DNA of 64,000 bases from Burkholderiales bacterium (GCA_038324085.1 JBBQHP010000001.1:68381-132380), one strand, 5' to 3'; shown: positions 45,449-62,086, counted from the stretch's first letter. The notes: a model not told the origin generated them from the letters alone. Numbers and translations are program-made.

Positions 45449-45484
45449 GCTCCGATCGGTGTCGCCAAGACATTTCCGAACGTC

Positions 45485-47011
45485 ATGCAAGCACCGGTAC
45501 CGGATGTCGGCGACGACCCGCGGACGTTGACGGAAGCGGCGCGCGCCGCCTATCTGCGCAGCGATCTCGCTGCGGCTCGCATGCTCGCCGACCAGGTGCT
45601 GGCGCGCGCCCCCGGCCACGCGCCGGCGCTGAATCTGCTCGGCAACCTGCACCTCGCCGACGGGCTGCTCGACGACGCCGAGCGTTGCTATCGCGCAGCG
45701 CTCGCCGCGGACGCGAATCTCCGGTGCGCACGCTTCAATCTCGGCCTGGTCTGCCTGGAACGCGGCGATCGGGCCGGCGCCATTCGCGAGCTCGAGCCGG
45801 CGCTGGACGAAACCAGCGATGCCGAAGACTGGCTCTTGCTCGGCAACCTGCTCCACAGCGAGGGCCGCGCCGACGCAGCGCTTGCCCATTGGACGCGGGC
45901 CACGACCCGCAATCCGGCACTGGTCGAAGCCTGGTTCAATCTCGGCAGCGTCCAGCGCGCGCTCGGCCGGCGCCAGGATGCGCGCGCGGCGCTCGAACGC
46001 GCACAACAACTGCAGCCCGGCGCAGCGGCGATTCGCCTCGAACTCGGGCTGCTGGACCATGCCCAAGGACGATATTCCGCGGCCCTCGAGCAATTTCGCC
46101 ATGCGGTGGCTGCCGATCCTGCGAACGTCGATGCGCGCGTGAATCTGGCCGAGACTCTGCGCATCGTCGGTTCGAGCGCCGATGCGGCGACCTTGCTGGC
46201 CGAAGTGGTGAGCGATCACCCCGATGCCGGAAATGCGCACAAGGCCCTGGGCCTTATCGCCCTGTCCGAAGCGCGCCCAGCGGATGCAGCGGTGCACTTT
46301 CGGACCGCCCGCAAGTCACTGCCCGAAGATTCGGAGATCGCCCATCTGCTGGCCGCGGCCGAAGGACGTACCGCCGATGCGGCGCCGGCCGACTACGTGC
46401 GTTCCCTGTTCGACGGTTTTGCCGTGCGCTTCGACGAAGAACTGACACGGGATCTGGGCTATCGGACGCCAGGGGAGCTCGCCGCGGCGTTGCGCGAGTG
46501 CCTGCCCGAACCGCCGCCACCGCTCCGGGTCGCCGATCTGGGGTGCGGCACGGGCCTCGCCGGAGTCGCGCTGGGCACGATGTGCGCAAGCCTCGTCGGA
46601 GTCGATCTCTCCCCTCGAATGCTCGACGAAGCGCGCGCGCGCAATCTTTATTCAGAGCTCGTCTGCCAGGACCTGGTCGCATTCCTGAATCAGGGCGCAG
46701 AAGCGCGCTTCGACGCGCTGGTCGCCGCCGACGTCTTCATCTACGTGGGCGGGCTCGATGCCGTGTTCGCCGCGGCCCGACGGGCATTGGCGCACGGCGG
46801 GCACTTCGCGTTTTCCCTTGAACTTGCCGCGGAGGGCGGCGATGCTCAGGCCATCCTGCGCCCTTCGGGGCGCTTCGCCCACCGTCCGGATGCGGTGAGC
46901 GTGCTGGCAGAGACGACGGGGTTCGCCACGCTCGCCTGGCGCGAAACGATCCTGCGTCACGATCGCGCCGAACCTGTACGCGGTCTGATCGCAGTCCTGG
47001 CCGCGCACTGA
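45485..47011 (+). CDS. TPR-repeat protein fused to a class I SAM-dependent methyltransferase
   Basis: N-terminal 34-aa TPR periodicity (...AYLRSDLAAARMLADQVLARAPGHAPALNLLGNL...). The C-terminus has SAM motif I (VADLGCGTGLAG) and DALVAADVFIYVG. Confidence 0.8.
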   Translation: MQAPVPDVGDDPRTLTEAARAAYLRSDLAAARMLADQVLARAPGHAPALNLLGNLHLADGLLDDAERCYRAALAADANLRCARFNLGLVCLERGDRAGAIRELEPALDETSDAEDWLLLGNLLHSEGRADAALAHWTRATTRNPALVEAWFNLGSVQRALGRRQDARAALERAQQLQPGAAAIRLELGLLDHAQGRYSAALEQFRHAVAADPANVDARVNLAETLRIVGSSADAATLLAEVVSDHPDAGNAHKALGLIALSEARPADAAVHFRTARKSLPEDSEIAHLLAAAEGRTADAAPADYVRSLFDGFAVRFDEELTRDLGYRTPGELAAALRECLPEPPPPLRVADLGCGTGLAGVALGTMCASLVGVDLSPRMLDEARARNLYSELVCQDLVAFLNQGAEARFDALVAADVFIYVGGLDAVFAAARRALAHGGHFAFSLELAAEGGDAQAILRPSGRFAHRPDAVSVLAETTGFATLAWRETILRHDRAEPVRGLIAVLAAH

Positions 47012-47013
47012 GC

Positions 47014-49002
47014 ATGTTCGACTGGCTCAGGCGTGCCATCACCACGGCGCCCGTTGATCGGGGCAGCCTGGCCCAGGCCAATGCCGCGCTCGCCGAAGGA
47101 CGGGACGCGCAAGCAGTGGCGCTCCTCGATGCCTTCCTGCGCCAGCACGCTGCGGACGCAGAAGCGTTGCAGCTTCGCGCGATCGCGGCGTGCCGCGCGG
47201 GCGATTTCGTCCTGGGCGAGGACCTGCTCGGACGCGCGATCGCCGCGGACGCGACGCGGATCGAGCCGCATCTCACGCTCGCCGAAGTGCACCTGGAGCG
47301 GGAGCGCTTCCTCGACGCGATCGGGGAACTGCGTGCCGCGCTCGCGCTCGATCCGAACCGGCCCGCCACGCACCAACGGCTTCTGATGGCGCTCGGTGCC
47401 GCCGGACGCGACGACGACGCGCTCGAATACTGGCAATTGCTGCGCGGGCTCGACTGGCGGATCGATCCCGCGGACGATCCCGTCGCCGTGCTGCATGCGC
47501 AGGCGCGGCTGGTGGATGCGGAAGCCGCACTCGAAGGACGTGCACGGCACGCGCCGAACGACGCGACCACCCATCTGATGCTCGGCATCACGCGCCAGGC
47601 GCGCGGATTCATCGACGCGGCGATCGCCGCATTCCGCGATGCGGTTCGCGCCGATGATGGCTGCGCCCGAGCGCACGGCAAGCTCGCCTTCGCACTCGAC
47701 TCGCGTGGCGACGTGGCGGAATCGATCGCCCACTACCGGCGGGCTGCGGAGCTGGATCCCGGCTCGGCCCAGGCGCTGTCGGATCTTCTCGCTGCGCGCA
47801 TCTACGTCGGTCCCCACGACGCCCTGGAATCCGCGCGCGCCTACGGCCGCTATGAAGAACGCTTTGGTCGCCCGTTGCGCGACCACGCGCCGTTCACCCT
47901 GGCGCGCGATCCCCAGCGCAGACTGCGTGTCGCCTACGTCTCGAACGATCTCTCGGAGCACGTGATCAGCTATTTCCTCGAGCCGGTGCTCGCGTCGCAC
48001 GACCGATCGGAAATCGAAGTCTGGTGTTACGACCGCACCCGGCAGAGAGACGCGACCAGCGAACGCCTCGAACGGCTCGCGGACGTATGGCGCCGGGTAC
48101 CGGAGACGGATTTCGCGACCCTCGCGACCCAGGTTCGCGCCGATGCGATCGACGTGCTGGTGGATCTGAAAGGACACTTCGACGACAACAGCCTGCCGTT
48201 GTTCGCGCGCAAACCCGCGCCGGTACAGCTCACCTGGCTGGGCTACCCGGACACCACCGGGCTCGCCGCCATGGATGGATGGATCACGGACGGGCACATT
48301 GCCGCGGACCTGTCGGACCAGTACGCGACCGAGGAGATCATCGCACTCGACGATTTCTTCATGTGCTTTCGGCCCAAACCGGGCGCGCCGCCGCCGGCGA
48401 CCGTACCGTCGCTGTCGCGCGGGGCGATCACCTTCGGTTGTTTCAATGCCTACTCGAAGGTGAGCCCGGCGATGCGCGCGGCGCTGGCGGAGATTCTCCA
48501 GGCGCTCCCGCATTCACGACTGCTGATGACTGCCGTACCGCGCGGTGACGCGCGTACCCGCCTTCTCGCCGGGTTCGAGGCCGCCGGCATCGATCCTGAG
48601 CGGATCGAACTCCGCGGCCGCACGACGCACGCCCAGTTCCTGGCGTCCCACGACGAAGTCGATCTCGCGCTCGACAGTTTTCCGTACAACGGGACGACCA
48701 CAACCCTGCACGCGCTCTGGATGGGGGTACCGTTCGTGGCGCTCGCCGGAACCACGCACGTCGCGCGCGTCGGCGCCAGCATTCTCGCGAACGTCGGACT
48801 GGACGACTGGATCGCCCGCGACGTGGCCGGCTATGTGCGCATCGCGGTCGAACGGGCCGCGGATACGGCGCTCCTGGCCCGGTTGCGGCACTCGCTTCGG
48901 GGCCGACTCGCGGCCTCTCCGATCCTGGATGAAGCCGGCTTCACCCGGCGACTCGAGCGCGTCTACCGCGAGCGCTGGCGGCGCTGGTGCGCCGCCGATT
49001 GA
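47014..49002 (+). CDS. TPR-repeat protein fused to a GT41 (OGT/SPINDLY-like) glycosyltransferase domain
   Basis: TPR N-terminal half. The C-terminal half has LRVAYVSNDLSEHVISYF, APVQLTWLGYPDTTG, ITFGCFNAYSKV and LDSFPYNGTTTTLHALWMGVPFVALAG. Confidence 0.8.
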   Translation: MFDWLRRAITTAPVDRGSLAQANAALAEGRDAQAVALLDAFLRQHAADAEALQLRAIAACRAGDFVLGEDLLGRAIAADATRIEPHLTLAEVHLERERFLDAIGELRAALALDPNRPATHQRLLMALGAAGRDDDALEYWQLLRGLDWRIDPADDPVAVLHAQARLVDAEAALEGRARHAPNDATTHLMLGITRQARGFIDAAIAAFRDAVRADDGCARAHGKLAFALDSRGDVAESIAHYRRAAELDPGSAQALSDLLAARIYVGPHDALESARAYGRYEERFGRPLRDHAPFTLARDPQRRLRVAYVSNDLSEHVISYFLEPVLASHDRSEIEVWCYDRTRQRDATSERLERLADVWRRVPETDFATLATQVRADAIDVLVDLKGHFDDNSLPLFARKPAPVQLTWLGYPDTTGLAAMDGWITDGHIAADLSDQYATEEIIALDDFFMCFRPKPGAPPPATVPSLSRGAITFGCFNAYSKVSPAMRAALAEILQALPHSRLLMTAVPRGDARTRLLAGFEAAGIDPERIELRGRTTHAQFLASHDEVDLALDSFPYNGTTTTLHALWMGVPFVALAGTTHVARVGASILANVGLDDWIARDVAGYVRIAVERAADTALLARLRHSLRGRLAASPILDEAGFTRRLERVYRERWRRWCAAD

Positions 49003-49014
49003 GCGGGCGCGCCG

Positions 49015-49332
49015 TTACCGCTTCCGGGCGAGGCGGACCACCAGCCCCTTGGTCACGTTCTCGACGAAATTCTCACTGTAGCCCAGCTCCTTCAGCTGCC
49101 AGCGGAACACGTTGCCGAGCTTGGCCTTGCGAAACACGCCCAGTCGATTCTCCTGGTGAAAGCGCAGGGCGCGGGCATAGAGACCCTCGGTCACGACGGC
49201 GAGCTGATTTGCGGCACCTTTGTCGGTGCGGGCTTCCCCGGCGGGCGGGAACCTCCGCGCCAGGTCCTGCGCCAGGCTGCGCGCGAAATCGTCAACTTTC
49301 TTGGTATCGAAAAGACCTAACATGAATGGCAC
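49015..49332 (-). CDS. Hypothetical protein
   Basis: 105 aa with no recognisable motif and no signal peptide. It is the only opposite-strand ORF inside the TPR-GT array and does not overlap its neighbours. Confidence 0.45.
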   Translation of the reverse strand: MPFMLGLFDTKKVDDFARSLAQDLARRFPPAGEARTDKGAANQLAVVTEGLYARALRFHQENRLGVFRKAKLGNVFRWQLKELGYSENFVENVTKGLVVRLARKR

Positions 49333-49565
49333 TCCGTTTGCTTATGTCGATCGCCCCGTATCCAACAGCCCCAGCGCATCCACGCGCTCGGAGGACCGCA
49401 AGTGCTCTGTCGAGTTTCGCACGTGGCTCCGACACTGAAAAGCAATATCCGATCCACTGCGTCCGCGCCGGCGCATGCGCTCGGTCAGCCTCACGAGCTG
49501 CGCGCGGGCGCCGATTCCGCGGCTGGAATGCGGGGGCACGCTGTGCCACGAAAGGGCGGTCGCAC

Positions 49566-51788
49566 ATGCCTTTCCGGCTGAACGATCGCGGGTTGCGTCC
49601 CGAAGTGTCCGTCGCCCGCCTGATCGAGACGGGATTCGAGCACCATCGCGCAGGCAACAGCTCTCTCGCCCGTGCGGCGTATGCGGAGATCCTCGCGGCG
49701 CATCCGCAGCACGCGGACGCGAACTACCTGACGGGATTGCTCTGCGCGGCGGAAGGCGACCATGCCGTGGCGCTGTCGCATATCGAGCGCGCGATGAGCG
49801 CCGACGGCACCCAGGCTGCATATCCGCTATCGGCCGCGTCCAGCCTGCGCGCGCTCGGCCGCCACGACGAGGCCATCGAGCGCTATCGCGCGGCGCTGCG
49901 TCTCGATCCCGACGACACGCAGATCCTGGACGACCTCGGCACCGCGCTGGAGGAAGCCGGGGCGTACGCGGAAGCGATCCCGCTGCTCGAACGGGCGGTG
50001 GCGCGAGCGCCCGGGGAATGGCGGGTGCACTATCACCTCGGCAACGCGCTCCGCGGCGCCGGCCGAAACGTCGAAGCCGCCGAGCGCTACCGCCAGGCTG
50101 TCCTGATCAATCCGGATTCGGCCGAAGCGCACAACAATCTGGGCGTGGCGGCGCAGCAGACCGGAGCCCTCGCGCAAGCGCGCGCCAGCTTCGAAGCCGC
50201 CCTCGCGCTGGCACCAGACTACCCGGACGCGCACAACAATCTCGGGGCCTGCCTGCACGCTCTGGAACGCACCGAGCAGGCCGTCGACTGCTTCGAGCGC
50301 GCCCTGGCTCTCGACCCGATCCATCCGCTGGCCCGAGTCAACCGGGCACAGGCGCTGCAGGAGCTGGGTCGCTGGCGCGAGGCGATCACCGCCTACGAGG
50401 CAGCGCTCGGCGGGGGCGGACGACCTGGAGTTCAGGTGCGCCTCGCCACGGTGCTGCCGGTCGTTGCGCGCTCGAGCGCGGAGATAGTCGAGGCGCGAGA
50501 GCGCTTCGGCGCCGGGATTGACGCCCTCGCCGAGCAAGGCATCCGCCTCGCCCATCCCGAAAAGGAGGTGGCATCGTGCAATTTCCATCTGGCGTATCAC
50601 GGCTTCGGCAACCGCGTCCTGCAGCAGAAGATCGCAAACCTCTACCTCCAGGCCTGTCCGGAACTCGGCTGGCGCGCACCGCACGTCGATCGCGGACCCC
50701 GGCGCTCCGGCCCGATCCGCGTCGGACTAATCTCGCGTTTCCTCCGCAATCATTCCATCGGCAAGACGTCGCGGGGCCTGTTCGCCCAAATCACCCGACC
50801 GGATTTCGAGGTCATCGCCCTGTTCGCGCCGCCATTCGTGGATGACGGGATGTCGCGCTTCATTTCGCAGAATGCCGACCGGAACGTGATCCTGCCGGGC
50901 GAACTGGGCGCGGCCCGGGAGACCATCGCGGCGCTCGAGCTCGATGTGCTTTTCTATCAGGATATCGGGATGGACCCGTTCACCTACTATCTCGCCTTCG
51001 CCCGGCTGGCGCCGGTGCAGTGCGTCTCCTTCGGGCATCCCGACACCACCGGGATACCCAACATGGACTGGTGGGTGTCGACCGAGGATTTCGAGACTCC
51101 GGACGCACCGTCGCACTACAGCGAACGACTCTGGCGGGCGCAGGGCATCGGAACGCTCGCGTACTACTACCGTCCGCCGGTGCCGGCCGAGCCGAAGTCC
51201 CGCCGGGAACTCGGCCTGCCCGAGGGCCGTGCGATCTACTTCTGCCCGCATTCCCTGTTCCGCATCCACCCCGACTTCGACGCGATCTTCGGCGCCATCC
51301 TGGCGCGCGACCCCACGAGCGAGATCATCATGATCGAAGGGACGCAACCGCATTGGACCACGCTGTTCCGGGAGCGCCTCGGGCGCACGCTCGGGCCGGA
51401 CCTGGGGCGGGTGCGCATCCTCCCGCTCCAGCCGCACACGGCCTATCTGAACCTCATGCAGGTCGCCGATGCAATGCTCGATCCGATCTACTTCAACGGC
51501 ATGAACAACTCGCTCGACGCCTTCGCGGTGGGATTGCCGATCGTCACGCTGCCGCATGTCTTCCAGCGCGGGAGACACACCAACGGCATCTATCGGCACA
51601 TGGGCTGGACCGGCTGCGTCGCGGCAGATCCTGCCGATTACGCGAACATCGCGTGGAGACTCGCTCATGATCCCGATTTCCATGTCGAGGCCCGGCACGA
51701 GATCGCGCAACGGCGCGATACCCTGTTCGAGGATCCGCGAGTACCGCGCGAGTTCGAACGCTTCTTCCACGAAACGGTGGGTCGCTGA
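49566..51788 (+). CDS. TPR-repeat protein fused to a divergent GT41-like glycosyltransferase domain
   Basis: The start is chosen at MPFRLNDRGL (the ORF track starts at 49326). TPR half, then IRVGLISRFLRNHSIGK, APVQCVSFGHPDTTG and LDPIYFNGMNNSLDAFAVGLPIVTLP. Confidence 0.7.
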   Translation: MPFRLNDRGLRPEVSVARLIETGFEHHRAGNSSLARAAYAEILAAHPQHADANYLTGLLCAAEGDHAVALSHIERAMSADGTQAAYPLSAASSLRALGRHDEAIERYRAALRLDPDDTQILDDLGTALEEAGAYAEAIPLLERAVARAPGEWRVHYHLGNALRGAGRNVEAAERYRQAVLINPDSAEAHNNLGVAAQQTGALAQARASFEAALALAPDYPDAHNNLGACLHALERTEQAVDCFERALALDPIHPLARVNRAQALQELGRWREAITAYEAALGGGGRPGVQVRLATVLPVVARSSAEIVEARERFGAGIDALAEQGIRLAHPEKEVASCNFHLAYHGFGNRVLQQKIANLYLQACPELGWRAPHVDRGPRRSGPIRVGLISRFLRNHSIGKTSRGLFAQITRPDFEVIALFAPPFVDDGMSRFISQNADRNVILPGELGAARETIAALELDVLFYQDIGMDPFTYYLAFARLAPVQCVSFGHPDTTGIPNMDWWVSTEDFETPDAPSHYSERLWRAQGIGTLAYYYRPPVPAEPKSRRELGLPEGRAIYFCPHSLFRIHPDFDAIFGAILARDPTSEIIMIEGTQPHWTTLFRERLGRTLGPDLGRVRILPLQPHTAYLNLMQVADAMLDPIYFNGMNNSLDAFAVGLPIVTLPHVFQRGRHTNGIYRHMGWTGCVAADPADYANIAWRLAHDPDFHVEARHEIAQRRDTLFEDPRVPREFERFFHETVGR

Positions 51789-53323
51789 TGCTGGGCTGGT
51801 TGAAGCGGGCACCGCGCACGCAATCCCTGGACACCCCCGGCATTGACGAAGTGCTCACGCGATCCCGCCGGCTCCAGGAAGCCGGCGACGTGGACGGTGC
51901 CGCGGCGCTGGTGGATACGGTCCTCGCCGGCCATCCGCGCCATGCCCGGGCGCTCACACGGCTCGGCACCCTGCGCTTCATCCAGGGCCGCCTCGACGAT
52001 GCGCAATCGCTCTACGGCGCTGCGCTGGAACTCGAACCGGCGAACGCTGATCTGCACTTCAATCTCGCGCTGGTGCATGGCGGTCGCGGCGACGCCGGTC
52101 GATCCATCGCGAGCTATCGCACGGCGCTCGCGCTCAAGCCCGATTTTCACGAAGCGCATTTCAATCTCGCGACGGTGCTGCACGAGATCGACGAACTCGA
52201 GCCTGCCCTCGCCAGCTACGAGGCCGCGGAGCGATGCACTCCGGGTCGTCGCGAAGTGCTGATCGGCATGGGGCTGGCCCGGCTCGAGCTCGACCAGCTG
52301 GACCCGGCGATTGCCTGCTTCGATCGCATCCTGGCGAAGGATCCGGACTACCCCGAGGCGCATCTGTACAAGGCGATGGCCCAGCTGAAGCGCGGCGAGT
52401 ACGCCGAGGGCTGGGACAACTACGACCACCGCTTCGACACCGAGGAGATTCGCGGTGCGAGGCGCGACTATCCCGGCCCTCGCTGGCTCGGCGAGGATCT
52501 TCATGGGCGCACCATCCTGCTGATCGCCGAACAGGGTTTCGGCGACACCATCCAGTTCATTCGCTTTGCACCGCTGCTGGTCGAACGCGGAGCGCGCGTG
52601 ATCGTCGAGGCTCCCGCTCCGCTCGCGACGCTGTTGCGATCGATGGTCGGGATCGAGATCGTCATCGCGGGTGCGGCACTGCCGGCGTGCGATTTCCACA
52701 GCTACCTTATGTCGCTGCCGCGTTTCCTCTCGCGCAGCCTGGGCGCAATCCCGGCCGCAATCCCCTACCTCCAGCCGACGCCGGCGAAAGTAGCGAGGTG
52801 GCGCGAGCGACTGGCCGGAGACCCTGGCTTCAAAGTCGGACTCGTCTGGGCAGGAGATCCGCACAAGGAACACCCGAGCGGCTATCGCGCGGATCGCCGC
52901 CGCAGCAGCAGTCTCGAACAACTCGCCCGCTTCGGCGAGGTCGCGGGGGTCTCGTGGTACAGCGTCCAGAAGGGCGCCGCGGCGGCCCAGGCGCACGCCG
53001 CCGACGTGCCCTTCGTACTGGTTGACACCGGCCCCGAGCTGCATGACTTCGACGACACCGCGGCCCTCCTGCAGTCCCTGGATCTGGTGGTGACGGTGGA
53101 CACCGCTGTCGCGCACCTGGCAGGCGCGCTCGGCCGCCCGGTCTGGGTGATGCTGCGCTACGATTGTTGCTGGCGCTGGCTCAAGGATCGCAACGATTCG
53201 CCGTGGTATCCGACCGCACGCCTGTTCCGCCAGCCCCATCGCTTCGACTGGGCGGCGGTTGCCGCAGACGTGGTCCGCGACCTCGCGCCGCTGGCCGTCG
53301 CACAGACCACCTCCGTCCGGTGA
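51788..53323 (+). CDS. TPR-repeat protein fused to a GT9 (heptosyltransferase-like) domain
   Basis: TPR N-terminus. The C-terminus has AEQGFGDTIQFIRFAPLL and VTVDTAVAHLAGALGRPVWVML. The ATG overlaps the upstream TGA by 1 nt. Confidence 0.75.
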   Translation: MLGWLKRAPRTQSLDTPGIDEVLTRSRRLQEAGDVDGAAALVDTVLAGHPRHARALTRLGTLRFIQGRLDDAQSLYGAALELEPANADLHFNLALVHGGRGDAGRSIASYRTALALKPDFHEAHFNLATVLHEIDELEPALASYEAAERCTPGRREVLIGMGLARLELDQLDPAIACFDRILAKDPDYPEAHLYKAMAQLKRGEYAEGWDNYDHRFDTEEIRGARRDYPGPRWLGEDLHGRTILLIAEQGFGDTIQFIRFAPLLVERGARVIVEAPAPLATLLRSMVGIEIVIAGAALPACDFHSYLMSLPRFLSRSLGAIPAAIPYLQPTPAKVARWRERLAGDPGFKVGLVWAGDPHKEHPSGYRADRRRSSSLEQLARFGEVAGVSWYSVQKGAAAAQAHAADVPFVLVDTGPELHDFDDTAALLQSLDLVVTVDTAVAHLAGALGRPVWVMLRYDCCWRWLKDRNDSPWYPTARLFRQPHRFDWAAVAADVVRDLAPLAVAQTTSVR

Positions 53324-53330
53324 CGACCCG

Positions 53331-56045
53331 ATGCTGCGCTGGCTGAGAAACAAGACGGAAACGGTTGCTTCGACGGACCTCGGGGCGCTCGTCCAGGAGG
53401 GCTTGTCCCGCCAGCAGATGGGCGACCTGGCGGCGGCGCGCGCGTCCTACGAAGAGATACTGAAGATCGATCGTCGCAACCTCGACGCAAGCTACCTTCT
53501 CGGCACGGTGGAGCTCGCCAGCGGGGCCGTGGCGCTTGCGCTCGAACGCTTCGACCAAGTCCTGCGCGTCGATCCGGCCAATGCAGCCTGCCACTATTCC
53601 CGCGGCGAAGCGCTGCGCTTCGACAATCGCCTGCCCGAAGCCGTCGACGCATTCCGCGCGGCGCTCGTGCTGGAGGCCACCGATCCGGAATGGTGGAACG
53701 AGCTGGGCCGCACACTCGATGCGCTCGACCGCGTCGACGAAGCCGGCGACTGCTATGCCGAGGCCGCCCGTCTGGCGCCGGCATTTGCGCCGGGGGCATG
53801 CAATCTCGGCAACGCGCGGCTGCGTCAGGGGCGCCGCGACGAGGCGCGGGCAGCGTTCGAGCAGGCCGTTGCGCACGCCCCCGACTTCATGCCGGCGGTG
53901 TTCGGTCTCGGCTCGATCCTTCAGGCCGAAGGCCACCTCGCAGAAGCGGCGGCGCGCTACCAGCAAGCTTTGGCGCTCGCGCCGGGACAAGCGGAAGTGC
54001 TCACGAATCTCGGTGCGGTGTTGCTTGGCCAGGGCCGCCCCGAAGCCGCCGAACGGGCTCTGCGCGCAGCGCTCGAGAGCGAACCCCGGTCCACCGAGGC
54101 CTGGATCAATCTGGGCGCGGCGCTGCGTGCCCTCGACCGCCTGGACGAGGCACAGGTGGCGTACGCGCGCGCCATCGAGACCGCACCGGCGTTCGCCCCG
54201 GCGCGCCTCCAGCATGCGATCGCGCTCGAGTTGCTGGGCCGGGTTCACGATGCCGAGCGCGAACTGAACGAAGCCATCGCGATCGATCCGGGCCTGGCCG
54301 AAGCGCACTGCAGACTCGGAAACATTCTCGGACGCCAGGGGTTCCTCGACGAGGCAGAACAGGCCTGGCGCCGCGCCCTGGAGATCGAGCCGGAGCACAT
54401 TGAAGTGCTGATCAATCTCGGTGATTCGCTCAATCGCAACGGCCGGGTGGATGAAGCCGTGGCACTCACCGAACGGCTCGTGGCCGCGCATCCGGATCTC
54501 GCCGTAGGTCGGCTCAACCTGGGCGTATTCCTGCTCGGCACGCCGCGCCACCCGAAGGCCGAAGACTGTTTCCGCAAGGCGCTGGAACTCGATCCTGAAC
54601 TCGCGTCGGCCCATGTGATGCTCGCGGCGCTGTATCTCGGCCAGGCGCGTTTGTCCGAAGCGGAAGCCGAGGCCCGGGCCGCGCTCGATGCGCCCGGCCA
54701 GGCGCTGGGCGCGTGGGTCAACCTCGGCAACGCGCTGCAACATCAAGGACGTCTGTCCGAGGCGATCGAAGCGGCGCGCCGCGCGATCGCGATCGATCCG
54801 ACCCACGGCCAGGCGTGGAGCAACCTGCTGATGACGCTCCAATACCGCTGGGAGACGACGGACGCCGAATTGATGCAGGTACAGCGCGAATTCGGCGAGC
54901 GCTTCGATGCCCCGAACCCACCCGACTTCGCGGCGCACGATCGCGACCCCGGGCGCAAGCTGCGCATCGGCTACGTGTCGCCGGATTTCCGCCATCACGT
55001 CGTTTCGTTTTTCTTCGAGCCGGTGCTTGCTGCGCACGACCGCTCCCAGGTCGAGATCTTCTGTTACTACAATCACACGCTCGTTGATGCCACCACGCGA
55101 CGCTTGCGCGCCGCATCCGATTACTGGCGCGACATCGCCCCGCTGAACGACGAAGAAGTCGCGCGGATCATGCGCGCCGATCGGTTGGACGTCGCGATCG
55201 ACCTCGCCGGGCACACGGCGAAGAACCGGCTGCCGGTGTTCGGCCGGCGCGTGGCGCCGGTGCAGGCCACGTGGCTGGGTTTCCCGGGCGGAACCGGACT
55301 GGCGTCAATGGACTGGCGCGTCACCGATGCCCGCGCGGACCCGGAAGGTCCGGCGGAAGACCAGCACGTGGAGCGGCTGCTGCGCTTGCCGGAGACCTTC
55401 ATAGCGTACACGCCACCGCGCGACGCACCCGACGTGGCAGACCTGCGCACGGACGCCATGATCACATTTGGCGCATTCAACAATTTCTCCAAGGTTACCG
55501 ACCCCATGCTGGCGTTGTGGGCCCGCATCCTCGCCGCGGTACCCGAGGCGCACCTGTTGGTGAAGGCCGGTTCGCTCAAGGACCCTGGCACGCGCGAACG
55601 TGCCGCCGGGCGCCTCGCCCGATACGGCTGCGATCTCGCGCGCGTGACCCTCACCGGCACCATTCCTGCGTATCGCGATCACCTCGCATCCTGGGGTGCC
55701 GTCGACGTTGCGCTGGACACTTTTCCCTACCACGGCACCACCACGACCTGCGAAGCGCTCTGGATGGGGGTGCCGGTGGTGACCCTCGCGGGCGACCGTC
55801 ACGCCGCGCGCGTCGGCGTGAGCCTGCTCGAGGGTCTCGGGCTCGCAGATCTCGTCGCCGGCACCGCCGACGAATACGTTGCTGTCGCGGTGCGCCTCGC
55901 TCAGGACCGCAGGCGCCGCGAAGAACTGCGACGCACGTTGCGGGACACCATGGCCTCGGCACCGCTTCTGAACGTCGCACGCTTTACTCGCTCGCTCGAG
56001 ACCGGCTATCGCAGCATTTGGCAGGATTGGCTGGCGCGATGCTGA
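53331..56045 (+). CDS. Long TPR array (about 14 repeats) fused to a GT41 (OGT/SPINDLY-like) glycosyltransferase domain
   Basis: The start is chosen at MLRWLRNKT. The C-terminus has LRIGYVSPDFRHHVVSFF, APVQATWLGFPGGTG, ITFGAFNNFSKV and LDTFPYHGTTTTCEALWMGVPVVTLAG. Confidence 0.8.
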   Translation: MLRWLRNKTETVASTDLGALVQEGLSRQQMGDLAAARASYEEILKIDRRNLDASYLLGTVELASGAVALALERFDQVLRVDPANAACHYSRGEALRFDNRLPEAVDAFRAALVLEATDPEWWNELGRTLDALDRVDEAGDCYAEAARLAPAFAPGACNLGNARLRQGRRDEARAAFEQAVAHAPDFMPAVFGLGSILQAEGHLAEAAARYQQALALAPGQAEVLTNLGAVLLGQGRPEAAERALRAALESEPRSTEAWINLGAALRALDRLDEAQVAYARAIETAPAFAPARLQHAIALELLGRVHDAERELNEAIAIDPGLAEAHCRLGNILGRQGFLDEAEQAWRRALEIEPEHIEVLINLGDSLNRNGRVDEAVALTERLVAAHPDLAVGRLNLGVFLLGTPRHPKAEDCFRKALELDPELASAHVMLAALYLGQARLSEAEAEARAALDAPGQALGAWVNLGNALQHQGRLSEAIEAARRAIAIDPTHGQAWSNLLMTLQYRWETTDAELMQVQREFGERFDAPNPPDFAAHDRDPGRKLRIGYVSPDFRHHVVSFFFEPVLAAHDRSQVEIFCYYNHTLVDATTRRLRAASDYWRDIAPLNDEEVARIMRADRLDVAIDLAGHTAKNRLPVFGRRVAPVQATWLGFPGGTGLASMDWRVTDARADPEGPAEDQHVERLLRLPETFIAYTPPRDAPDVADLRTDAMITFGAFNNFSKVTDPMLALWARILAAVPEAHLLVKAGSLKDPGTRERAAGRLARYGCDLARVTLTGTIPAYRDHLASWGAVDVALDTFPYHGTTTTCEALWMGVPVVTLAGDRHAARVGVSLLEGLGLADLVAGTADEYVAVAVRLAQDRRRREELRRTLRDTMASAPLLNVARFTRSLETGYRSIWQDWLARC

Positions 56046-57829
56046 CGCGATTCCTGCGGCGCAGGGATCTGCCAGCGGCAACCGACGCAACGTCGCAGGT
56101 GCATGCAGGGTTCGCCCTGCATCGCATCGGCGACATCGAAGGCGCGCTGCGGTGTTATCGGTTGGCACTGGAACTGCAGCCGCGCAACGGCGACGCGCTC
56201 TATCTGTGCGGCATTGCCGAGACAAGCCGCGGCGAGACCGACGCGGCGCTGGATCTCCTCACCCGGGCGACCCAGCACGATGCGACCAATGCTCACGCCT
56301 GGTTCGCGCTCGGGGAGCTGCTCCGCGCGAGGGGTGATCCGGTGCGCGCCGCAGAAGCGCTGGAGGCGGGCCTCGCGCGCGACCCCAATGACCCTGCGCG
56401 GTACGATCAGCTGGCGGAACTGCGCATCGCGACGGGCGCCCCGTGCGGCGCCGAGGCCGCTGCGCGTACCGCGATCGAACTCGATCCGGCGCACGCGGAA
56501 GGTTGGATCGCCCTCGGGGCCGCTTTGCGCGCACAAGGTCTTTCGCGCCAGGCAACCGAGTGTTTCGAGCGCGCCTGCGAACTCGATCCGAACGCTGCAG
56601 CCGCCTGGCACAACCGCCTGCTGACCTTGAACTATGTGGATGATCTGCCCGCGGCCCACGTCGCCGCCGCGCATCTGGATTTCGGCGCGCGTTTCGAGCA
56701 GCGGCCCGGAGACATCTTCCGGACCGCTGCGCCCCCGGCCGACCGGCCGCTACGGGTGGGCTTCGTGTCGGCCGATTTCGGCCACCACGTGGTGTCGTTC
56801 TTCATCGAGCCGGTACTCGCTGCGCTCGATCGTTCGGCGATCGAGGCATTCTGCTATTTCAATGGTGCGCGCGAAGACGAACAGTCGCGGCGCCTGCGTG
56901 CGCTCGTGCCGCACTGGCGTTCCATCGCGAACCTGGATGATGCCTCGGCGCTGGCGCTGATCCGCGACGACCTTCTCGACATTGCCGTCGATCTCTCCGG
57001 GCATACCGCGGGCAATCGTCTGCCCTTGTTCGCGCAGCGAATCGCACCGGTACAAACCACCTGGCTCGGCTATCCGGCCACAACCGGCCTCGCGACCATG
57101 GACTACCGCCTTACCGATGCCCTGGCCGACCCTCCCGGCATGACCGAAGCATTCCACAGCGAACGTCTGATGCGGCTGCCGGACGGGTTCCTGTGCTTTC
57201 AACCGCGAGCGGACGCTCCCGCGGTCACGGCATTGCCGGCGGCGACATCGGGGCGGGTCACGTTCGCGTCGTTCAACAATCTCGCAAAGCTGACCGAGAC
57301 GGCGCTGGGTGCCTGGGGACGGATTCTCGAACAGGTCCCGGACTCGCGGCTGCTGCTCAAGGGACACGGACTGGAGGAAGCAAGTCTCTGCCGTGCCCTT
57401 GCAACGCGCTTTGCGAATGCCGGCGGCGACGCCGGACGACTCACGATGGAAGGGATCCGCGCGCCACACGAAGCCCATCTCGCGCGTTACGGCGAAGTCG
57501 ATGTCGCCCTCGACAGCATGCCCTACTGCGGCACGACGACCACCTGCGAAGCTCTGTGGATGGGCGTTCCGGTCGTGACCTTGGCAGGTGCCAGTCACGC
57601 AGCGCGGGTCGGCGCAAGCCTGCTCGACGGAATCGGCCACGGCGAGTGGATCGCCGAGGACCTGCAACAGTATGTCGACATAGCGGTGCGGCTCGCATCG
57701 GACACGGCCATGCTGGCGAAGCTGCGCGCGAGCCTTCGCGCCGAGTTTGCCGCCGCGTCGCTCGTGGATGCGCATCGCTTCGCGCGCGAGCTTGAATCGG
57801 CCTTGCGCGAGATGGTGCAGGCATGTTGA
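56039..57829 (+). CDS. TPR-repeat protein fused to a GT41 (OGT/SPINDLY-like) glycosyltransferase domain
   Basis: The start at MLTRFLRRR overlaps the upstream stop (ATGCTGA). Has LRVGFVSADFGHHVVSFF, APVQTTWLGYPATTG, VTFASFNNLAKL and LDSMPYCGTTTTCEALWMGVPVVTLAG. Confidence 0.8.
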   Translation: MLTRFLRRRDLPAATDATSQVHAGFALHRIGDIEGALRCYRLALELQPRNGDALYLCGIAETSRGETDAALDLLTRATQHDATNAHAWFALGELLRARGDPVRAAEALEAGLARDPNDPARYDQLAELRIATGAPCGAEAAARTAIELDPAHAEGWIALGAALRAQGLSRQATECFERACELDPNAAAAWHNRLLTLNYVDDLPAAHVAAAHLDFGARFEQRPGDIFRTAAPPADRPLRVGFVSADFGHHVVSFFIEPVLAALDRSAIEAFCYFNGAREDEQSRRLRALVPHWRSIANLDDASALALIRDDLLDIAVDLSGHTAGNRLPLFAQRIAPVQTTWLGYPATTGLATMDYRLTDALADPPGMTEAFHSERLMRLPDGFLCFQPRADAPAVTALPAATSGRVTFASFNNLAKLTETALGAWGRILEQVPDSRLLLKGHGLEEASLCRALATRFANAGGDAGRLTMEGIRAPHEAHLARYGEVDVALDSMPYCGTTTTCEALWMGVPVVTLAGASHAARVGASLLDGIGHGEWIAEDLQQYVDIAVRLASDTAMLAKLRASLRAEFAAASLVDAHRFARELESALREMVQAC

Positions 57830-59841
57830 ACTGGCTCAGGCGCCGCATACCGGGGAGCCGACCCGGCGCATTCGCATCGCTCATGGAGACCGGCCTTGCG
57901 CATCACCGCGCCGGCCGGTTCGAACAGGCGTGCGCGCACTACCTGCAGGCCGTGGCTTTGGACGGTGGCGACGCGCATGCCCTCCATCTGTACGCGCTCG
58001 CGCTGGCGGGCTGCGGGCGGCGCGAGGAGGCGCTCGCGAAACTCGAATCCGCGATCGGGATCGACGGCGGCAGCGCGCGGTACCGGACCGCAGCCGCCGA
58101 GTGTCTGCGGGCCATGCACCGGAACGACGAGGCGCTCGGGCAGGCGCAAGCGGCCATGGATCGCGATCCCGGGAGCGGTGCCGCACACAACGAACTGGGG
58201 CTATGCCTGGTCGCCGCGGGCCGCGTCGATGAAGCGATGGCCCTGTTCGAAGCAGCGACCCGGCTTGCGCCCGATTGGTTCGAAGGCTGGGGCAACGCGG
58301 GCAACGCGTTGCTCTCCCTGGGCCGCGCGGACGAAGCGCTGGTGCGGTATCGTGAAGCGCTGCGACTGGGTCTCTCCGATCGCGGCATCCGGCTGAACGC
58401 AGTCGCGGCGCTGCGCGCGGTCGGCCGGATCGACGAAGCGCTCGATCGTTGCCAGGAGATACTCGCCGAGGATCCGCGCTTTGTCCGCGCGTCCGTCCTC
58501 GCGGCGGAACTCCTCGAACGCAAAGGGGACACCGCGAACGCTCGCGCCCTGTTCGACAGTGCCGTCGATTTCGTACCCGACGACGCCCAACTCTGGACCG
58601 ACTACGGCTATTTCCTGCAACGCATGGAAGCGCTCGACGACGCCGCAACCGCCTACCGACGCGCGCTCGCGATCGCGCCAGAACACCCGGGGGCCCTCAA
58701 CAACCTGGGCATGGTGCTGTTCGAGGACAACCGCGTCGACGAAGCGGAGAGCCTGCTGGAGCGCGCGGTGGAACGGCCCGACGCCCGCCCGGAAGCATGG
58801 TCCAACCTCGGCAATCTGCGCGCCGCCCAGGGCCGCGTCGACGAAGCGCTCGCTTCGTTCGACCACGCCGCGCGGGCCGGGCTCGATACCGCGGATGCAC
58901 GCTTCGATCGCTCCCTTGCCCTGCTGCTTGCGGGCCGGTTCGCCGCGGGCTTCGCCGAGTACGAAGAACGGTTCCGCACGACCCCGTGGGCAGACGTGCG
59001 GCAGGATTGGCCGGCACCACGCTGGCGCGGCGAGGCGCTCGCCGGCCGCACGCTTCTGCTATGGGCCGAACAAGGCCTTGGCGATACGCTCCAGTTCGTT
59101 CGATATGCGCCGGGGCTGGCACAGCGCGGCGCCCGCATCGTCCTGCTGGTCCAGCCGGCATTGCGCAGACTGCTCACGGCTTCGATGGATGCCACCGTCC
59201 TGGTGCCCGGCGATCCGCTCCCCGCGATCGATTTTCAGTGTCCGTTGATGTCGCTGCCGCACGCGTTCGGAACCACGCTCGAAACCGTACCGTCGGCAGC
59301 GCGCTACCTCCGCGTTCCGACCGAGGCTGCCGCAGCCATGGCAGGCGTGTTCACCGGTACCAGCGCGCCGCGAATCGGCCTCGTCTGGGCCGGCAATCCG
59401 ACCCATCGCAACGATCGCAATCGATCGCTGCCGTTCGCTGCGTTGCGCCCATTGCTGGAAGCCACCCGGGCCACGTTCGTCCCCCTGCAAATTCCGGGCA
59501 CGGTGCCCGAACCCGAGGTTCCCGCACACACGCACTGGCTAAGTGTGATGCACCGGGTGCACGACTTCGCCGACACCGCGGCGCTCCTCGAGCAACTCGA
59601 TCTGCTGATCACGGTGGATACTTCCGTGGCCCATCTCGCCGGAGGCCTGGGTCGTCCGGCCTGGGTGCTGCTGCCGTTTGCGCCGGACTGGCGCTGGATG
59701 CTCGATCGACCCGACACGCCTTGGTACCCCGGGCTCACGCTGTTTCGCCAGCAGCGCGCCGGCGAGTGGGCGCCGGTGATCGAAGCGCTCACACGCGAAC
59801 TTCGCGTTGCCGTCGCGGACAAAGCAGCGTTGCCATGCTGA
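57823..59841 (+). CDS. TPR-repeat protein fused to a GT9 (heptosyltransferase-like) domain
   Basis: MLNWLRRRI start (ATGTTGA overlap). The C-terminus has AEQGLGDTLQFVRYAPGL and ITVDTSVAHLAGGLGRPAWVLL. Paralog of 51788-53323. Confidence 0.75.
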   Translation: MLNWLRRRIPGSRPGAFASLMETGLAHHRAGRFEQACAHYLQAVALDGGDAHALHLYALALAGCGRREEALAKLESAIGIDGGSARYRTAAAECLRAMHRNDEALGQAQAAMDRDPGSGAAHNELGLCLVAAGRVDEAMALFEAATRLAPDWFEGWGNAGNALLSLGRADEALVRYREALRLGLSDRGIRLNAVAALRAVGRIDEALDRCQEILAEDPRFVRASVLAAELLERKGDTANARALFDSAVDFVPDDAQLWTDYGYFLQRMEALDDAATAYRRALAIAPEHPGALNNLGMVLFEDNRVDEAESLLERAVERPDARPEAWSNLGNLRAAQGRVDEALASFDHAARAGLDTADARFDRSLALLLAGRFAAGFAEYEERFRTTPWADVRQDWPAPRWRGEALAGRTLLLWAEQGLGDTLQFVRYAPGLAQRGARIVLLVQPALRRLLTASMDATVLVPGDPLPAIDFQCPLMSLPHAFGTTLETVPSAARYLRVPTEAAAAMAGVFTGTSAPRIGLVWAGNPTHRNDRNRSLPFAALRPLLEATRATFVPLQIPGTVPEPEVPAHTHWLSVMHRVHDFADTAALLEQLDLLITVDTSVAHLAGGLGRPAWVLLPFAPDWRWMLDRPDTPWYPGLTLFRQQRAGEWAPVIEALTRELRVAVADKAALPC

Positions 59842-61502
59842 AATCATTCTTCGCGAGCAAGCGGCCACTGCGGGGAGAGCGCCGGTGCAAGTGCTGCGGT
59901 GCGACTGCGGCGTGGTTCGGTGCGGTGGACTTCTCCAAGAGCTGCGAGGATGCAAAGGCCAAGGTGCTGCCCGATTCGGGCCGGATGATCGATTACTTCC
60001 GGTGCAGCGACTGCGGGTTCCTCTTCACCGAGCTGATCGACGACTGGAGCAGCGCGCGGGTCGCTGCCGAGATCTACAACGCGGACTATGTCCGGGTCGA
60101 TCCGGACTTCGTCGCGACGCGGCCGCTCGCCAATGCGCAGCTGCTGGCCGCTGGCTTCCAGGGCATGGAGGCGGAGCTTTCCATTCTCGACTATGGCGGC
60201 GGCAACGGCGATCTGGCGCGCCATCTGCGAGCTGCACGATTCGTTCGAGCGACCTCGTACGATCCGTTCCACGACGGCGGCGCTGACAAACCCGCCGCGC
60301 CGAGCGATCTCGTTACGGCGTTCGAGGTGGTCGAACATGCGCCCGATCCCGTCGCCCTGTTCGAGGACGTGGCAAGGCTCGTCGCCGACGGCGGTGCGTT
60401 CCTGTTCACCACGCTTCTGCAGCCGTCCGACATCGCAACCGTCGGCCTCGGCTGGTGGTACGCAGCGCCACGCAACGGCCACGTTTCTCTCCATACGCGC
60501 GCAAGCCTCGAGGCCGCGTCGAAGCGTGGCGGCTGGCACGTGGAATCCTTCGATTCCCTGCTGCACGTCGCCTGGCGGACCCGCCCCGCGTGGCTGGATC
60601 GCTTCGAGGCGATGCTCGCGAAGCTCGGGGATGCGGCCCCGCCTTCGGTTCAGCCTGCACGCTTCGTCACCACGCGCGACGCCTCCATGAGCGCGGCGCC
60701 GATCGTTGCGGCGCGCCAGTGCCGCCACGGCCGGATGAGCTATTTTCCGCACGATGCCTACGTCGGGCGTTCGCTCGATCTGTATGGCGAATTCTCCGAG
60801 GGCGAAGTCGATCTGTTCCGGCAGTTGCTCCGGCCGGGCGACACTGTGCTCGAGGCCGGGGCCAATATCGGCGCTCACACGGTGTTCCTCGCGCAGGCGG
60901 TTGGACCCCAGGGTAGAGTGCTCGGCTACGAGCCGCAACGTGCGATCTTCGACCTGTTGCGAATCAACCTGGAGGCGAACGCGCTGCCATGGGCGGATGC
61001 TCGGCTTGCCGCGCTGGGCTCCACGGTCGGGACGATCCGGGTACCGCCGCTCGATTACAGCGCGGCCGACAATTTTGGCGGTGTGTCGATGGGCGGAACG
61101 GCGGGGGAACTGGTGGCGGTCGAGACCATAGACGGGCTTGATCTGCCGCGATTGAAGCTGCTCAAGATCGACGTCGAAGGCATGGAGACCGACGTCCTGC
61201 GCGGGGCAACCGCAACCATCTGGCGCACCCGTCCCTACTTGTACGTGGAGAACGACCGCGAGGAAAACTCGTCGCAGCTGATCGCAGTGATCCAGTCGCT
61301 CGGTTATCGACTCTGGTGGCACGCACCCGCATTGTTCAATCCCGGCAACTTTGCGGGCAACAGTGACAATGTCTTCGGCACCGTCGGGTCGATCAACCTG
61401 TTCTGCGTGCCGGAAGAAGTCGAAACCAGCGTGGGCGGGTTGCGCGGAGTGACGTCGCCTCGGGACCGGTTCACGAGCCAGGCGTTTTCGCGATCAGGTT
61501 AA
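59835..61502 (+). CDS. Fusion of a Cys4 zinc-ribbon plus class I SAM methyltransferase with an FkbM-family methyltransferase
   Basis: The start at MLKSFFASK overlaps the upstream stop (ATGCTGA). Has CKCCG...CSDCG, ILDYGGGNGDLA and FEVVEHAPDP. The second half has VLEAGANIGAHTVFLA...LKIDVEGMETDVLRGA, typical of FkbM. Confidence 0.75.
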   Translation: MLKSFFASKRPLRGERRCKCCGATAAWFGAVDFSKSCEDAKAKVLPDSGRMIDYFRCSDCGFLFTELIDDWSSARVAAEIYNADYVRVDPDFVATRPLANAQLLAAGFQGMEAELSILDYGGGNGDLARHLRAARFVRATSYDPFHDGGADKPAAPSDLVTAFEVVEHAPDPVALFEDVARLVADGGAFLFTTLLQPSDIATVGLGWWYAAPRNGHVSLHTRASLEAASKRGGWHVESFDSLLHVAWRTRPAWLDRFEAMLAKLGDAAPPSVQPARFVTTRDASMSAAPIVAARQCRHGRMSYFPHDAYVGRSLDLYGEFSEGEVDLFRQLLRPGDTVLEAGANIGAHTVFLAQAVGPQGRVLGYEPQRAIFDLLRINLEANALPWADARLAALGSTVGTIRVPPLDYSAADNFGGVSMGGTAGELVAVETIDGLDLPRLKLLKIDVEGMETDVLRGATATIWRTRPYLYVENDREENSSQLIAVIQSLGYRLWWHAPALFNPGNFAGNSDNVFGTVGSINLFCVPEEVETSVGGLRGVTSPRDRFTSQAFSRSG

Positions 61503-61998
61503 GGCTGATCGGAACGCCCTTGAACAGCATGTTGCTGGTGTCGTCGAACAGTCCGAAGCCCTGGACGCGCTGGATGTCGACGAAGCCCGCATGCGTCAGG
61601 AAGTGGGTGAGGAACTCTTCGTTCAATCCCGAGAGGTGGTAGTCGAACTTGTCCATGTGCCCGCCGAACATCATGCGCATCACCATCCAGCGGTCATCGC
61701 GCGTGAGCGATTCACGCAACAGGAACAGTTCGGCGAGCGTATCGAGGTCCGGCACGCTCACGTAGAGAGTGCCCCCGGTGACGAGCGTACGGCGCCAATC
61801 GGCGAGTGCCTCCTGCATTTCGTTCATGAAGTCGAAGTGCTCGACGACGTGCGACGCGTAGATCACGTCGAAGGTGCCATCGGCGAAACGTGAAAGGTCG
61901 CGGGCATCGCACACGTGATCCACGCCCCCACGCTCCATTGCATCGAGAATCTCCCAGCCGGGAGCCGGCTGCCTGCCGCCAATGTGAAGTCTGCGCAT
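61471..61998 (-). CDS. Class I SAM-dependent methyltransferase (Methyltransf_11-like)
   Basis: MRRLHIGGRQPAPGWEILD...FDVIYASHVVEHF. The start is trimmed to 61998 because the longer ORF would begin inside the pilin terminator. The 3' end overlaps the convergent gene by 32 nt. Confidence 0.7.
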   Translation of the reverse strand: MRRLHIGGRQPAPGWEILDAMERGGVDHVCDARDLSRFADGTFDVIYASHVVEHFDFMNEMQEALADWRRTLVTGGTLYVSVPDLDTLAELFLLRESLTRDDRWMVMRMMFGGHMDKFDYHLSGLNEEFLTHFLTHAGFVDIQRVQGFGLFDDTSNMLFKGVPISLNLIAKTPGS

Positions 61999-62020
61999 GA
62001 ACGAAAATCCCGGAGATCGC

Positions 62021-62050
62021 AAAAAAACGGGGAGGCTCGTCGCCTCCCCG
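62021..62050 (-). terminator. Rho-independent terminator downstream of the proximal pilin gene
   Basis: On the minus strand, CGGGGAGGC-GACGA-GCCTCCCCG is followed by T7. It lies about 37 nt after the pilin stop. Confidence 0.85.
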
Positions 62051-62086
62051 CAGCTACTTTTCCAGCCGGCTGTACCGGCCGATCGA

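Follow-up and report, generated by a model that had tools for sequence, protein, structure and literature searches.

The DNA analysed here, hereafter the window, is a stretch of 64,000 nucleotides from a Burkholderiales bacterium (GCA_038324085.1 JBBQHP010000001.1:68381-132380), and its positions 45485-61998 hold an island of ten genes, nine of them for enzymes and one small and conserved, with two tandem type IVa pilin genes directly to its right on the minus strand (62087-63105). Genes were called with a codon-position G+C filter combined with Pfam, mechanical lists of open reading frames (ORFs) being crowded in this window of 62-69% G+C. The island and its right flank contain the following features:

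45485-47011, plus strand: g1, tetratricopeptide repeat (TPR) array and class I S-adenosylmethionine (SAM) methyltransferase (Pfam TPR, Methyltransf_25/11/12)
47014-49002, plus strand: g2, TPR and GT41 (PF13844, 4.4e-45, 154 bits)
49015-49323, minus strand: g3, conserved helical protein of 102 aa (homologues, AlphaFold2 model)
49324-49565: divergent intergenic region of 242 bp between g3 and g4, likely promoter region (gene coordinates)
49566-51788, plus strand: g4, TPR and divergent GT41, XcOGT/NGT-like (PF13844, 1.8e-13, 50 bits)
51788-53323, plus strand: g5, TPR and GT9-like GT-B domain (PF01075, 7.6e-7, 29.1 bits)
53331-56045, plus strand: g6, long TPR array and GT41 (PF13844, 2.3e-51, 175 bits)
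56039-57829, plus strand: g7, TPR and SPINDLY-like GT41 (PF13844, 4e-54, 184 bits; SPINDLY in the PDB)
57823-59841, plus strand: g8, TPR and GT9-like GT-B domain (paralogy to g5, AlphaFold2/Foldseek)
59835-61502, plus strand: g9, Cys4 zinc ribbon and Methyltransf_23 (MT23), fused to FkbM (PF13489, 1.6e-28; PF05050, 1.3e-12)
61471-61998, minus strand: g10, small Methyltransf_11-type methyltransferase of 175 aa (Pfam)
62027-62051, minus strand: intrinsic-terminator-like hairpin 3' of pilA1 (10-bp stem with 8 G-C pairs, T7 tail)
62087-62533, minus strand: pilA1, type IVa major pilin (N_methyl and Pilin)
62659-63105, minus strand: pilA2, tandem pilA1 paralogue (N_methyl and Pilin)
63401-64000, minus strand: HD-GYP domain gene, cut at the window end (PF13487)

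Seven of the encoded proteins join a TPR array to a catalytic domain, which is GT41 in four, GT9-like in two and a SAM methyltransferase in one. The domain content listed in an earlier, sequence-only reading of this DNA (SAM methyltransferase, GT41, GT9-like, FkbM and Methyltransf_11) is borne out by Pfam and, for g8, by structure search, whereas its count of six TPR fusions falls one short. Genes g4-g9 are tightly packed, with successive junctions of -1, +7, -7, -7 and -7 nt, and this overlapping or near-abutting arrangement is that expected of one operon. For comparison, the domains of the window were mapped by tblastn onto 85 loci anchored on g9 (L numbers below); the g4 homologue in one of them, L002, is 744 aa long, which is consistent with the 49566 start. 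A sigma-70 consensus scan of 44300-64000 returned no promoter, a weak test for a genome of 67% GC. All array proteins are soluble: their peak KD19 hydropathy is 1.8 (Rossmann strands) versus 2.9 for the pilin control, and none contains a hydrophobic stretch that would contradict the earlier claim that signal peptides and transmembrane segments are lacking. Additionally, g2, g5, g6, g7, g8 and g9 share a basic/aromatic N-terminus (MFDWLRR, MLGWLKR, MLRWLRN, MLTRFLRRR, MLNWLRRR and MLKSFFASKR, respectively), which is also found in close relatives of g9 (MLxxLFRRR); in the wider families of TPR-fused GT9-like (TPR-GT9L) and TPR-FkbM proteins it occurs in only 7 of 180 members. The "ML" of these N-termini is partly forced by ATGCTGA start/stop overlaps; the remainder of the peptide could be a docking or targeting tag.

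The four GT41 enzymes all exceed the curated PF13844 cut-off of 25 bits, the match of g4 being to the C-terminal half only. In the PDB, the best match of g7 is Arabidopsis SPINDLY (SPY), with an E-value of 1.1e-115 over 566 residues, followed by Thermobaculum OGT (TtOGT, 1.6e-81), human OGT (hOGT, 8e-67), the Xanthomonas OGT homologue (XcOGT, 2e-46) and, weakly, HMW1C. Specifically, the SPY residues N661, K665 (essential), H728, Y744 and T748, which were identified by structure and mutagenesis (PMC9715652), are all kept in g7 in the alignment. In line with this, g2, g6 and g7 retain the essential Lys of the FN..(A/S)K motif (hOGT K842, SPY K665) together with the conserved His, PY and GTTTT, the motifs of g2 reading SxD..H, FNxxSK and PY-GTTTT. 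At the position proposed to select donor size (PMC9715652), g2, g6 and g7 carry Tyr, human OGT carries Cys and g4 carries Phe; the Tyr suggests that UDP-GlcNAc would not be the obvious donor of g2, g6 and g7. By sequence, the closest solved relatives of g4 are XcOGT (3e-25) and HMW1C/N-glycosyltransferase (NGT; 1e-16), and its best NCBIfam match is NGTferase (6.9e-16), far under the cut-off of that family. Because g4 has Arg at the catalytic Lys position and NGMNNS in place of GTTTT, its activity appears uncertain. The OGT/SPINDLY-like catalytic domains assigned in the sequence-only reading therefore have intact motifs in g2, g6 and g7 and altered ones in g4. To our knowledge, all characterised GT41 enzymes (OGT, SPY and HMW1C/NGT) glycosylate proteins.

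The catalytic domains of g5 and g8 are paralogues with 43% identity. The match of g5 to PF01075 (29.1 bits, cut-off 22) spans profile positions 149-205 only, and the C-terminal domain of g8 has no match in Pfam or in a PDB sequence search. NCBIfam heptosyltransferase I scores for the GT9-like domains are 19-22 bits, far under the cut-off of 185, and PDB sequence searches with these domains gave a best E-value of 0.42 or nothing. An AlphaFold2 model of the g8 C-terminal domain, built on 39 homologues, has a predicted local distance difference test (pLDDT) score of 90, and its top Foldseek matches in the PDB are the GT9 structure 3tov, TibC (4rap), WaaF (1psw) and WaaC, with E-values of 6e-7 to 5e-5, a probability of 1.0 and template modelling (TM) scores of 0.5-0.56; in the structural alignments the identity is low, at 11-13%. 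The model agrees with the GT-B fold that the sequence-only reading had suggested checking, with GT9/TibC nearest, and supports calling the predicted g5/g8 domain a GT9-like GT-B fold, an assignment that establishes neither GT9 proper nor heptose as the sugar. These proteins belong to the TPR-GT9L family, whose more than 7,400 members come from many phyla, share about 50% identity and are mostly fused to TPRs.

Among the methyltransferases, g9 scores 82 bits against TIGR01444 (cut-off 37.7) and 48.6 bits against PF05050 (cut-off 22.7) for its FkbM domain, which is 50-60% identical to hundreds of TPR-FkbM fusions. The glycine-rich SAM-binding motif of g9 is conserved, and its zinc-ribbon cysteines C18, C21, C57 and C60 are invariant in 14 homologues. 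The small methyltransferase g10 shares its strand with pilA and sits 3' of pilA1, and homologues with 62-64% identity occupy the same place between array and pilA in L002, L006 and L013, while g1-like TPR-methyltransferase genes recur in the pilin-linked loci L020, L026, L033, L039, L040 and L041. In relatives, glycosyltransferase and methyltransferase domains are fused in single genes (L026 3091-5655 and 8186-10636; L033 2962-5481 and 8132-10636; L038 9959-12685 and 12717-15179), giving the triple-domain types TPR-GT9L-FkbM, FkbM-TPR-GT9 and MT23-TPR-GT9L. Together with the MT23-FkbM fusion, these argue that the glycosyltransferase and methyltransferase activities belong to one pathway. The domain order of g9 is reversed in the Burkholderiales type-2 loci, where MT23 comes after FkbM. 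Stand-alone zinc-ribbon-MT23 genes of Caulobacterales, Phenylobacterium and Bradyrhizobium were also considered as parts of flagellin-modification clusters and rejected, as their neighbours look housekeeping.

What the sequence-only reading took for a small opposite-strand ORF interrupting the array (49015-49323) is indeed an ORF on that strand, yet it is more than an interruption: g3 is a real conserved gene, with 55-92% aa identity in relatives. The protein starts with MLGLFDTKK, and its 144 close homologues, of about 103 aa, are all annotated "hypothetical" and come from metagenome-assembled genomes (MAGs) of Burkholderiales/Betaproteobacteria. An exhaustive profile search (E<=1e-3) yielded 615 clusters at 50% identity, all of them stand-alone proteins of about 100 aa. 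The AlphaFold2 model has five helices and a pLDDT of 92, and neither g3 nor its distant members match a Pfam family, nor does g3 match any NCBIfam model or PDB fold (best E-value 0.47). g3 homologues are present in all betaproteobacterial pilin-linked loci, with 55-63% aa identity and placement between array genes in the distant ones, and absent from Geobacteraceae and from flagellin-linked loci.

The products of the two pilin genes begin with a class III leader and N-methylation motif (MKRIQQG followed by FTLIELM; PF07963 and PF00114). For pilA1, which has a Ser+Thr content of 21%, the nearest solved structures are Neisseria PilE (2e-20) and Pseudomonas aeruginosa pilin (1e-15). pilA1 and pilA2 share 94% nucleotide identity, which is confined to the coding regions, the flanks being unrelated; this pattern suggests gene conversion or selection on the duplicate. 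The pilins of the window, L002, L008 and L013 carry an N-x-S/T sequon near residue 72 (DNAS, NNAS, TNLT or DNST), located in an S/T-rich loop after the N-terminal helix and lacking in the more distant pilin-linked loci. The sequon-bearing clade also carries the NGT/XcOGT-like g4, a co-occurrence in a small and related sample that may reflect shared ancestry.

The co-occurrence with pilin genes that the sequence-only reading had raised is found well beyond the window: a core module of TPR-GT9-like, FkbM and zinc-ribbon methyltransferase domains adjoins pilA in about 14 loci. In the close relatives L002/L003, L006, L008 and L013 (Rhodocyclaceae/Burkholderiales MAGs; g9 identity 56-59%), the order of array, convergent small methyltransferase and pilA is kept, and beyond pilA L002 has the HD-GYP gene as in the window, there followed by a GAF-MshEN-T2SSE ATPase, as well as FHA and PP2C genes. 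Distant betaproteobacterial MAGs with 46-52% identity (L018, L020, L022, L025, L026, L028, L033, L039 and L041) show the order PP2C-FHA-pilA (one or two copies), then one to three co-directional TPR-GT9-like genes (often TPR-GT9L-FkbM), the g3 homologue, and FkbM followed by MT23, with a reversed g1-like TPR-methyltransferase and usually a TPR-GT41 gene nearby. Linkage to pilA persists in these loci despite inversion, swapped domain order and variable gene number. Four of them (L018, L020, L028 and L039) were used for gene order only; their pilin and array genes seem frameshifted, with truncated or run-on translations, probably through long-read MAG assembly errors rather than as pseudogenes. 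The Geobacteraceae MAG L038 is an independent lineage in which the enzyme genes lie within the pilus locus itself, between pilR and pilA: pilB-pilT-pilC-pilS-pilR is followed by FkbM-TPR-GT9 (908 aa), MT23-TPR-GT9L (820 aa) and two short Geobacter-type pilins. A TPR-GT41 gene adjoins pilA in the window and in L002, L006, L020, L025 and L041; across the proteobacteria, it is the GT9-like, FkbM and MT23 genes, rather than GT41, that accompany pilA most constantly. Elsewhere the module is linked to flagellin genes (L005, where a DegT aminotransferase gene is also present, L069, L082 and, weakly, L037), and three extra flagellin queries detected no further flagellin-linked loci.

Homologous arrays thus lie beside pilin (about 14 loci) or flagellin (three to four loci) and not in lipopolysaccharide (LPS) or exopolysaccharide (EPS) loci. 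Neither the window nor the annotated homologous loci contain Wzx/Wzy/WaaL-type, initiating transferase, flippase, polymerase, ligase, oligosaccharyltransferase or export genes, and the window, as the sequence-only reading had stated, also contains no lipid-carrier genes. A gene-by-gene Pfam check of L026, the boundaries of which are coaBC and radC, showed it to be free of LPS/EPS genes. Array content varies even at short distance. The nearest relatives, L086-L088 (g3 91% identical), have the sox/moaC/M48/kinase flank and g1-g2-g3 in common with the window, while their TPR-glycosyltransferase genes differ in order and set and include a TPR protein of 455-475 aa in which no catalytic domain is recognised. 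The array thus varies between strains, as surface-glycan islands typically do.

Taken together, the GT41 identity, the GT9/TibC-like fold and the pilin/flagellin linkage support the core of the sequence-only reading, namely soluble, TPR-guided protein glycosylation and methylation rather than LPS/EPS synthesis. We propose that the island is probably a glycosylation/methylation system for filament subunits that works without an oligosaccharyltransferase and is here dedicated to the adjacent type IVa pilins, comparative gene linkage making pilin the leading candidate substrate. From this wholly genomic evidence we infer a substrate, cell compartment, timing, sugars and methyl acceptors as follows. 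The soluble enzymes would dock through their N-terminal TPR arrays on the pilin, or on each other around the pilin, at the cytoplasmic side. The GT9-like g5 and g8 and the GT41 enzymes g2, g4, g6 and g7 would use nucleotide donors to glycosylate Ser/Thr directly, the NGT-like g4 possibly targeting Asn, and the transferases would also extend sugars added earlier; the product may be an oligosaccharide rather than several monosaccharides. The FkbM, zinc-ribbon-MT23, TPR-fused and small methyltransferases would then add methyl groups to the attached sugars or, with lower likelihood, to the protein, and the modified pilin would subsequently be inserted or assembled, with g3 as a putative accessory factor in the betaproteobacterial version.

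That a TPR-glycosyltransferase encoded beside a filament gene modifies its product in the cytoplasm is not new in principle: cyanobacterial pilin and alphaproteobacterial flagellin are known examples. In Synechococcus elongatus and Nostoc punctiforme, PilA glycosylation and normal piliation depend on the Ogt proteins Synpcc7942_0051 and OgtA, respectively, and the catalytic Lys is required; ogt and pilin genes are adjacent in 38% of 201 cyanobacterial genomes, and the cytoplasm was proposed as the site because Ogt has no secretion signal (PMC9306852). The sequence-only reading therefore overstated how little is known about what bacterial TPR-GT41 proteins do. As in the window, the cyanobacterial system has a soluble TPR-GT41 protein encoded beside tandem pilA, but it consists of one enzyme, whereas here there are four GT41 and two GT9-like enzymes, four methyltransferase domains and a novel small protein; it also belongs to another phylum, the present system being betaproteobacterial, with a GT9L/FkbM/MT23 version in Geobacteraceae. 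In FlmG of Caulobacter and Brevundimonas, an N-terminal TPR region of about 310 aa binds flagellin, and cytoplasmic sugar transfer is the task of a C-terminal GT-B domain of about 290 aa (PMC7591256; bioRxiv 2022.03.25.485807). g5 and g8 resemble FlmG in architecture and domain sizes. Unlike the pathway proposed here, whose candidate substrate is pilin, FlmG transfers pseudaminic or legionaminic acid (Pse/Leg) and is accompanied by nonulosonate synthesis genes, which are absent here. HMW1C/NGT (GT41) and TibC/AAH (GT9-related) belong to the two fold families seen here, work in the cytoplasm and glycosylate proteins before Sec-dependent export, but they have no TPR arrays, their substrates are large repetitive adhesins, and TibC is an iron-containing dodecamer. 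SPINDLY and OGT resemble g7 in combining a TPR superhelix with a GT41 domain, yet they add a single regulatory sugar to many nucleocytoplasmic proteins, in contrast to a multi-enzyme island with methyltransferases beside a surface-filament gene. Finally, glycosylation genes also lie beside pilA in the case of Neisseria PglL and of TfpO/PilO and TfpW of P. aeruginosa, and the shared outcome would be a glycosylated type IVa pilin; these, however, are polytopic membrane enzymes acting in the periplasm with lipid-linked glycans, and no such gene occurs here. In the literature, we found no description of an array with four GT41 enzymes, two GT9-like glycosyltransferases and four methyltransferase domains, of the recurrent trio of GT9L, FkbM and zinc-ribbon methyltransferase beside pilA in Betaproteobacteria and Geobacteraceae, or of the g3 family.

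Several observations weigh against a pilin-dedicated system. No sugar-nucleotide synthesis genes lie beside the array, and the sole sugar-related ORF outside it is a generic NAD-epimerase-family gene 25 kb off (19638-20663). A strong terminator (62051-62027) stands between pilA1 and g10, which starts at 61998, and the array is convergent to pilA, so that co-transcription of array and pilA is unsupported. The betaproteobacterial pilin-linked loci share a wider synteny (PP2C-FHA-pilA) and are therefore not fully independent. Many members of the TPR-GT9L family occur in unrelated contexts, as do stand-alone MT23 genes and several stand-alone TPR-GT9L genes, and two TPR-GT9L homologues stand among housekeeping genes. 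On a Caulobacteraceae metagenome contig (L089), a TPR-GT9-like gene at 10001-11572 (53% identity to the g8 domain) comes immediately after rmlB/A/C/D-like genes and is neighboured by a GT1 gene and by type I secretion system (T1SS) components, with genes of the outer-membrane efflux and AprE/HlyD types. This is a hint that dTDP-rhamnose serves some TPR-GT9L members as donor and that their target may be a type I-secreted protein; with dTDP-rhamnose genes beside this member and no heptose-synthesis genes near the array of the window, the donor of the GT9-like enzymes may differ from ADP-heptose. The Arg that replaces the catalytic Lys of g4 belongs with these points, as does the fact that the lineage is known only from uncultured MAGs. 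Furthermore, type IV pilins have their globular domain in the periplasm, and the general view is that prepilins insert co-translationally. HMW1C and TibC demonstrate that glycosylation can precede the export of Sec substrates, for pilins only an analogy, and the access of cytoplasmic enzymes to pilin is unexplained, even in the cyanobacterial precedent.

A more elaborate form of the pilin proposal, which we put forward only tentatively, is a cytoplasmic, TPR-guided assembly line in which SPINDLY/OGT-like, NGT-like and TibC-like GT9-type transferases, with three to four methyltransferases, would build a methylated oligosaccharide on pilin before it reaches the membrane; g3 would serve as an adaptor or pilin-holding factor, and the module would have been re-targeted between pilin and flagellin across phyla.

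Alternatively, the array might be a general intracellular system that glycosylates and methylates proteins in the manner of OGT/SPY signalling, or act on several exported targets, and owe its place next to pilA to inherited synteny. The SPINDLY-like character of g7 would fit such a role, as would the signalling-rich neighbourhoods (Ser/Thr kinases with cyclic-nucleotide-binding domains, PP2C, FHA, HD-GYP and cyclases) and the many TPR-GT9L homologues found alone among housekeeping genes, and a bacterial GT41 enzyme, Yersinia HmwC, is reported to O-GlcNAcylate many proteins (PMC11329713). We nevertheless consider a general system unlikely, since linkage to pilA outlasts inversion, domain-order swaps and changes in gene number, the module recurs within the Geobacteraceae pilR-pilA interval and with flagellin elsewhere, and strain-variable content fits surface-glycan diversification better than conserved signalling. 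It is improbable that the array modifies flagellin in this organism too, as the module appears to do in other lineages, with the pilin genes as bystanders. Flagellin is the classic substrate of cytoplasmic O-glycosylation, TPR-GT-B flagellin transferases such as FlmG are established, and the module adjoins flagellin genes in the three or four loci named above, but flagellar genes are absent from the 64-kb window and from the betaproteobacterial loci examined, and pilin is adjacent in all betaproteobacterial loci with enough flank. Least probable of all, and rejected as the main explanation, is that the array builds or trims a lipid-linked or lipid A-core glycan (LPS, EPS or capsule) with TPRs serving only complex assembly: relatives in GT9 act as heptosyltransferases in LPS synthesis, O-antigen capping is a frequent role of FkbM methyltransferases, and one TPR-GT9L homologue lies beside rmlBACD, GT1 and outer-membrane/T1SS genes, yet the initiating transferase, flippase, polymerase, ligase and export genes of such a pathway are missing from the window and the annotated homologous loci, GT41 is known only for protein glycosyltransferases and all array proteins are soluble.

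If the island does act on pilin, it would extend oligosaccharyltransferase-independent pilin glycosylation, so far represented by one cyanobacterial enzyme, to Proteobacteria and to a methyltransferase-rich multi-enzyme pathway. Bacterial OGT/SPINDLY homologues and TPR-fused GT9-like or FkbM proteins, the latter a very large family, have almost no assigned substrates, and the island offers a concrete, testable substrate hypothesis for them; should the assembly-line version be true, thousands of unannotated "TPR-glycosyltransferase" and "TPR-FkbM" proteins would gain a physiological role. A pilin-directed system would also pose the question of how cytoplasmic enzymes glycosylate a membrane-inserted pilin, and soluble, modular protein glycosyltransferases of this kind would be of interest for glycoengineering.

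The other 45 kb of the window are housekeeping in character, with argA-like, GGDEF-EAL, ppk, ppx, phoU, rpiA, ilvA, slt, cca, sucCD, phoA-like, ctpA-like, cytochrome bc1, sspA-like, chromate transporter, M48 protease, moaC and sox genes and two kinase genes. The latter encode paralogous Ser/Thr kinases fused to a cyclic-nucleotide-binding domain (23881-25197, plus strand; 38683-39978, minus strand), and in related loci PP2C, FHA, CHASE2-cyclase and HD-GYP genes surround pilA, a dense nucleotide- and phospho-signalling neighbourhood. Coding-like third-position G+C without a Pfam match marks 11346-12329 (minus), 25198-26124 (plus), 31851-32468 (plus), 37548-38429 (plus), 38366-38899 (plus) and 43434-44285 (minus), some of which may be shadow ORFs. 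On its left, the array adjoins a partial sox cluster (43344-45429) comprising cytochrome c, SoxY (43780-44262), a probable SoxZ and a SoxA-like gene (44473-45429), and the same sox/array junction is present in L086-L088.

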